Source: Amphiscolops sp. MND2022
Lineage: Eukaryota
Assembly (NCBI GenBank): GCA_964187785.1
Contig: OZ076409.1
Span: 66,776,001 to 66,840,000, forward strand
Reading direction: 5' to 3'
DNA: 64,000 nucleotides
Position 1 is the first letter of the stretch. Each line of letters begins with the position of its first letter. This document shows positions 48,289-48,478 of the stretch, piece after piece. The notes under the pieces were generated by a model. The model was given only the letters and a program-made list of their open reading frames with translations, searched no databases and had not been told where the DNA came from. The position numbers and the translations under genes were made by a program.

Positions 48289-48478
48289 CCTTAAAAGGAA
48301 TAGTCACGTGATTTCCATAAAAGGAAATGCAATCATTACCTAAAAAGGAAGGTTGACATACAAATTTTGAATGACAGCGCACAAACCTTACCTTAAAAGG
48401 AAATGTCTTCCTTTTAAGGAAAACGAGGCGTAAACATTTCCAAATATGGAATAGTCACGTGACCAAAGTAGTATAAAA
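48289..48478. promoter_or_regulatory. Divergent promoter/enhancer 2: six perfect CArG boxes, two GTCACGTGA E-boxes and a TATA box
   Basis: CC(A/T)6GG at 48289, 48315, 48339, 48391, 48410, 48440. GTCACGTGA at 48303 and 48454. TATAAAA at 48472. Confidence 0.75.

Follow-up and report, generated by a model that had tools for sequence, protein, structure and literature searches.

The Polinton element and its surroundings

The window (the whole stretch of 64,000 nt that was analysed) carries a Polinton/Maverick element of 16,944 bp (39322–56265), which begins with AGTAGT and ends with ACTACT. Its terminal inverted repeats (39322–39807 and 55778–56265) match at 99% over 364 nt, with 3 mismatches, and then at 88% over 121 nt, and the element is flanked by a perfect 6-bp target-site duplication, TAACTT, on the plus strand (39316–39321 and 56266–56271). 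PMC8097293 describes Polintons as elements whose ends are (AG)3 or (AGT)2, which have terminal inverted repeats and which are flanked by a perfect target duplication of 6 bp. A zinc-finger and B-family DNA polymerase region occupies 39924–44282 on the minus strand, in several pieces (DNA_pol_B_2, E = 9e-11), with C2H2-like fingers at its start that gave weak Pfam matches below the cut-offs. On the plus strand we identified a retrovirus-type integrase in two frames (rve, 51798–52735, E = 6e-10), a double jelly-roll major capsid gene, also in two frames (53922–55264), and a putative adenovirus-type protease fragment (55266–55565; Peptidase_C5, E = 0.011, under the curated cut-off). The major capsid ORF has no Pfam match of its own and reaches an Atlas feature score of 0.96 to PF21738 clusters. 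Two plus-strand ORFs without a database match (52738–53919) stand where the minor capsid and core genes usually lie, and by position we take them to be putative minor capsid and core genes; the Pfam scan of the ORFs of the element found neither a packaging ATPase nor a minor capsid match. The element is thus a Polinton, sharing with the known ones its (AGT)2/(ACT)2 ends, inverted repeats and 6-bp duplication, a B-family polymerase of the protein-primed type (pPolB) and a retroviral-type integrase, both in pieces, and a double jelly-roll capsid, with the protease a candidate. Several genes of this copy are broken, for which decay and assembly error are both possible.

Short repeats occur throughout the element: a 31-nt repeat forms two arrays in an A/T-rich intergenic stretch (47010–47421), and 20-nt repeats lie toward the inside of each terminal repeat (39707–39798 and 55786–55884), with TATAAAA and CCAAT words farther out in the terminal repeat. 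A terminal-repeat word (39624–39672) recurs in a dispersed host repeat family (757–1844 and 11252–11500), which may derive from such Polinton ends. The DNA flanking the element encodes a C-type lectin domain, which, along with the EGF-like ORF carried by the Polinton, makes an animal the probable host. Host DNA also includes a direct duplication of 6105 nt (about 17900–30200), with a TRC8_N-domain ORF at 23309–24025, and a duplication of some 2356 nt (about 32600–37950) with a 157/172-nt satellite that holds eight CArG-matching words.

Genes flanking the CArG cluster

The cluster considered here is internal to the Polinton, where it takes up the roughly 300 nt that separate two divergent genes. 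The leftward gene (47675–48235, minus strand) is broken in this copy; in sister copies its start corresponds to 48235, which is 54 nt from the first CArG box. The trinucleotide CAG immediately precedes this start. The first rightward gene (48532–49201, plus strand), the 5' part of which is broken by a frame change, encodes a tandem PC4/PUR-fold protein. Pfam and PDB sequence searches gave this gene no name. Its structural model (mean pLDDT 78) consists of a doubled four-strand-plus-helix unit, for which the fold search returned Pur-alpha (PURA, E = 1.3e-5), and a weaker lead was an Atlas cluster of which 31% of the members have PC4. Because the doubled fold matches that of Pur-alpha, the modelled protein is likely to bind single-stranded DNA. 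Sequences of this family are numerous: the 90% cluster of the gene contains 159 of them, and a sister cluster 901.

Three short plus-strand ORFs of 137, 134 and 150 aa follow (49257–50547), none with a Pfam match; the first two occur in the same order after the PC4/PUR-fold gene in a metagenome locus (L001). By eye, 49688–50092 may contain a phospholipase-A2-like His-Asp motif and 50095–50547 a DEDD-exonuclease-like start, again with no Pfam match.

The CArG boxes

Six perfect CArG boxes span 161 bp (48289–48449), upstream of a TATA box, as had been annotated initially. Box 1 (48289–48298) and box 4 (48391–48400) both read CCTTAAAAGG, and the others are CCATAAAAGG (box 2, 48315–48324), CCTAAAAAGG (box 3, 48339–48348), CCTTTTAAGG (box 5, 48410–48419, beginning 19 nt past the start of box 4) and CCAAATATGG (box 6, 48440–48449). 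All six fit the CC(A/T)6GG consensus, and their spacings of 26, 24, 52, 19 and 30 nt follow no single helical phase. Each box is preceded by T[AT] and followed by AA, the latter a regularity already pointed out for every box. The nominal p-value of this flank regularity (5e-10) assumes independent boxes and is weakened by the shared ancestry of the six. An A-tract is found in all six cores (36 of the 64 possible cores contain one; p = 0.03). A splice-donor-like word on the minus strand (48387–48394) overlaps the left edge of box 4.

The shuffled-background scan proposed in the initial annotation showed an excess over chance: in 1000 shuffles of the element no 161-bp stretch held more than two boxes, and the local stretch of 260 bp, shuffled 100,000 times, never gave more than two either. 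The Polinton as a whole has 10 CArG matches against a shuffle mean of 0.97. Eight of these ten lie in two divergent gaps, and only these eight carry the extended flanks. For the entire window, 24 matches were observed and 4.69 expected (at most 9 in 100 shuffles), a chance rate of about one per 13.6 kb that agrees with the earlier hand estimate of one per 10–15 kb. Outside the element there are 14 matches, of which eight are a satellite word, CCAAAAATGG, in repeat copies and two a single duplicated site; satellite DNA thus accounts for most of the excess there.

E-boxes and predicted core promoter

The word GTCACGTGA was found twice, at 48303–48311 (E-box 1) and 48454–48462 (E-box 2), and both times TCACGTG begins 5 nt past a CArG box, which places TCACGTGA 5 nt downstream of box 1 and of box 6. 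With T before its core, TCACGTGA presumably suits USF, MiT/TFE or SREBP and not Myc. The TATA box, TATAAAAG (48472–48479, plus strand), lies 9 nt beyond E-box 2 and 22 nt beyond the end of the box array. An initiator is predicted at 48500–48505 on the plus strand, with CA at 48502–48503, the TATA box at −31 and one mismatch to the BBCABW consensus (PMC5580651). This combination of TATAWAWR with an initiator some 30 nt downstream is, as judged from sequence only, that of a TATA-type Pol II core promoter. No separate Ets site of the form CCGGA[AT] or CAGGA[AT] is present in 48236–48535, where GGAA occurs only as an overlap with the box edges.

Conservation in relatives

Gene callers have often extended the first rightward gene upstream through the promoter, so that a translation of the promoter is on record in relatives. 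Of 265 proteins, we used the 52 in which 58 or more residues precede a conserved anchor; these are 55–66% identical to the first-gene protein of the window. For each we determined, yes or no, whether a motif could encode the upstream peptide, a degenerate test that works on peptides and not on DNA. A CArG box followed by AA fits 44 of the 52 upstream peptides (2.6 on average and 7 at most in shuffles, and 4/52 in coding parts), and TCACGTG fits 48. The composite CArG-N5-TCACGTG fits 33 of the 52 and does not fit the other 19; with spacers of 3, 4, 6 or 7 nt it fits none, and it likewise fits none of the 52 coding parts. In the relatives, one box most often follows another at a distance of 19 nt (21 of 36 pairs), which is also the distance from box 4 to box 5 of the cluster. 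Where the TATA box would stand, the word fits TATAWAAG in only 10 of the 52.

A search seeded with upstream peptides had supplied 42 of the 52 proteins; in the unseeded first search the composite fits 8 of 10. At 25% difference the 52 proteins form two clusters (48 and 4 members), both with composite-fitting members, and therefore amount to few independent comparisons. In a second library, the composite fits 9 of 23 relatives, does not fit 14, and fits none at other spacers (the 23 being early-matching proteins picked by hand among 150 matches listed); one of the relatives in this library has four E-boxes with a 48-nt period. A homologue search with the upstream peptide of a single protein (P0023) matched only that protein. 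Searches of viral contigs returned no loci, whether the query was the first gene or its alignment, the capsid or the presumed minor capsid, or the composite pattern as DNA. Among four DNA runs that were aligned to the element, with cover too thin to be informative over 44366–44939 and 48384–50679, one contig of run X4 aligns over 47420–48450 with 117 differences and 25 gaps; beyond the aligned part, the end of this contig still has the E-box 9 nt before a TATA-like word.

The conservation across copies that had been named as a check is thus supported indirectly, by back-translation, in what are roughly two lineages. We infer that the unit of CArG box, 5 nt and E-box, together with the 19-nt spacing between CArG boxes, has been kept across lineages that are about 40% diverged in the first gene. 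The CArG/E-box promoter module of this high-copy Polinton family is real and probably under selection.

A second divergent gap and an EGF-like peptide

The other divergent gap of the element (44283–44970) contains CArG boxes at 44539 and 44808 with the same flanks as those of the cluster, a CArG-like word at 44488, an AP-1 site at 44504 and an E-box at 44856, and has no TATA box. A CCAAT word is also present. Farther to the right, an ORF of 82 aa (46733–46981, plus strand) encodes a hydrophobic N-terminus and one EGF-like domain, the nearest solved structure being that of HB-EGF (E = 3.7e-8). Its cluster has 87 members; among the members listed, the six-cysteine and G-x-R-C spacing is found in 13 of 15, and the other two are short. 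Related contigs align across this ORF.

Proteins that would read the promoter

We interpret the cluster as a selected Pol II promoter, or promoter-enhancer, that would be read by host SRF together with a host USF/MiT-type factor, and give this interpretation a probability of about 0.7. In animals the MADS factor for CC(A/T)6GG is SRF, which responds to growth and wounding. None of the 100 ORFs of at least 55 aa in the element matched a MADS or bHLH family at E ≤ 0.05, so that the readers would be host proteins. A review, PMC10178880, notes A/T-rich 3-bp flanks at MADS sites, those of SRF included, and for MADS sites a preference for A-tract cores. The six boxes have such A/T-rich flanks and exceed the number expected by chance. 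With their strong TT/AA flanks, however, they are no closer to the SRF sites of vertebrates than to the MADS sites of plants and yeast. The SRF/MADS and USF/MiT assignment made initially has thus gained from the MADS-type flanks, the A-tract cores, the fixed spacing in relatives and the lack of MADS or bHLH proteins of the element's own, with binding itself a prediction.

In the mechanism that we propose, dimers of host SRF would bind the CArG boxes and a host bHLH-zipper factor of the USF/MiT type the E-boxes 5 nt away. Since 14 bp separate the centre of a box from that of its E-box, the two factors would sit side by side, where either cooperation or competition is possible. Transcription would start near 48503, and the first product would be the PC4/PUR-fold DNA-binding protein; the integrase and capsid block would perhaps be expressed through read-through and alternative processing. 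The gap has no Elk-type site, which makes the MRTF/myocardin route more likely than the ERK-TCF route.

A selected promoter might instead have another reader, either the zinc-finger protein of the element or a host factor of the GGAA/TTCC type (ETS, NFAT or similar). Every box ends in GGAA, the element codes for C2H2-like fingers and the regularity of the extended flanks goes beyond what a bare CArG box requires; yet the six cores, different as they are, consist purely of A/T between CC and GG, a rule that readers of GGAA do not need, the two Ets words are absent from the gap, and the finger matches are sub-threshold and belong to the start of the polymerase region. We regard another reader as unlikely. 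Two 15-nt words are exactly repeated in the cluster, one in boxes 1 and 4 and one in the tails of boxes 1 and 6, and are traces left by duplication in this copy; relatives have up to four tandem copies of a 48-nt unit, each with one E-box and two CArG-compatible sites, which indicates that duplication built the module. Most likely, then, the arrays arose by duplication, and the initial description of the cluster as not a simple tandem duplication holds for the irregular copy seen here but not in the face of these repeats. The same repeats, along with others in the element such as the 31-nt units, would also be expected if the cluster were an unselected by-product of local duplication of an A-rich unit, a view that we consider very unlikely. 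Boxes 1 and 6 share only two of six core letters and still keep CC, GG, an A/T-only core and the 5-nt gap, so that selection is visible in what survived; moreover, the motifs and spacings fit lineages some 40% diverged in protein and the box with these flanks is found again in the second gap. Also very unlikely is that the array serves as a cis-signal for replication, packaging or chromatin opening and not as a promoter enhancer. The packaging signals of adenoviruses are repeated A/T-rich words, and the first downstream gene has a single-stranded-DNA-binding fold; against this, the array lies some 9 kb from one terminus and 8 kb from the other and stops just short of a TATA box that has an initiator-like word at the canonical distance.

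Compatible with the SRF reading, and a little short of an even chance, is a bidirectional early promoter that serves only the two flanking genes while the capsid block has its own starts. The cluster had been said to head the long rightward block that ends in the capsid and protease genes. It does precede that block, but a leftward gene lies only 54 nt away on its other side, and the first rightward gene is of a replication type and not structural. An AATAAA word (49201) stands directly 3' of that first gene. Given these three features, a single transcript through to the capsid is only a candidate. On the other side, the ORFs downstream of the cluster are tightly packed on one strand, the stretch 48540–55250 has no CArG cluster and a sole strict TATA match (54296), which is inside the capsid gene, and AATAAA is absent at the corresponding place in two metagenome loci (L001 and L002, both of which begin inside the first gene, without the promoter). 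From the layout of the block, we put the chance that the promoter reaches the capsid genes as close to even. An AG lies a few bases before the starts at 44282 (minus strand), 44971, 46733, 48235 (minus strand) and 49257, in some cases after a pyrimidine-rich run. These AGs resemble splice acceptors, and cis- or trans-splicing may resolve the gene blocks.

The presence of a putative EGFR-type ligand in an element with CArG promoters suggests a feed-forward loop, in which the HB-EGF-like peptide would promote activation of the element that encodes it; the lack of an Elk-type site in 48236–48535 counts against the simplest ERK route of such a loop. Extended to the whole family, this would make the Polinton a signal-gated provirus: host SRF would control both internal promoters by way of a composite with fixed spacing between its SRF site and E-box, the conserved HB-EGF-like peptide would act on the boxes through EGFR signalling, wound or growth signals would set off a self-amplifying burst from the replication and capsid genes, and the many copies would seed the host genome with SRF-responsive enhancers. 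We hold this scenario to be doubtful.

Comparison with known systems

A 2024 coral study states that a clear understanding of Polinton expression dynamics is lacking (PMC11131425), and the present cluster points to a specific host pathway for switching a Polinton on. In a term search of three Polinton papers, PMC8502044 and PMC11131425 never used the word "promoter", PMC8097293 used it twice, each time for host genes, and "growth factor" and "EGF" were absent from all three. Our literature search, mostly by title and leaving supplements and most subscription journals aside, found no Polinton promoter with SRF/CArG sites. If the boxes work, the unit of CArG box, 5 nt and TCACGTGA would point to cooperation of SRF with a USF/MiT-type factor, of which no case turned up in the literature search. 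Working boxes would also mean that insertions could distribute SRF-responsive enhancers over the genome of the host, in the way that MERVL, driven by SRF, does in the mouse embryo.

Several features of the promoter have partial counterparts elsewhere. The adenovirus major late promoter has a USF E-box upstream of a TATAAAAG box and, to our knowledge, no CArG array. As described in the part of PMC4346872 that is available, this one promoter drives a long same-strand block of virion genes with several poly(A) sites and splicing. The likeness to the Polinton lies in the long same-strand virion gene block, which in the Polinton is known from sequence alone. Muscle and actin promoters, on which SRF acts with MRTF or myocardin, have several CArG boxes near the TATA box and no ETS site, as does the Polinton cluster; their E-boxes are mostly of the MyoD type, whereas those of the Polinton are of the USF/MiT/SREBP type. 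The growth factors of poxviruses and HB-EGF are comparable to the 82-aa ORF in being encoded by a short ORF with one six-cysteine EGF domain. Poxviruses, however, transcribe with their own polymerase, whereas the putative ligand of the Polinton is encoded in an element whose promoters carry CArG boxes.

The closest parallel is with retroviral LTRs, for which SRF sites are already known and to which the Polinton compares as another mobile element with CC(A/T)6GG, SRF recruitment being predicted in its case. In the accessible portions of the respective papers, HTLV-1 is described as having a viral CArG box (vCArG) in U3 (PMC3510432), reporters with the MT2/MT2C LTRs of mouse MERVL as being activated by SRF (PMC11960700), and an endogenous avian retrovirus with a single CArG box is listed as inactive (PMC7601775). 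In these partial accounts the SRF sites of an LTR are single or few, and each is paired with a site for ETS or DUX. The Polinton, in contrast, is a DNA-virus-like element with six boxes, of which two stand at a fixed 5 nt from TCACGTGA, in an internal divergent promoter.
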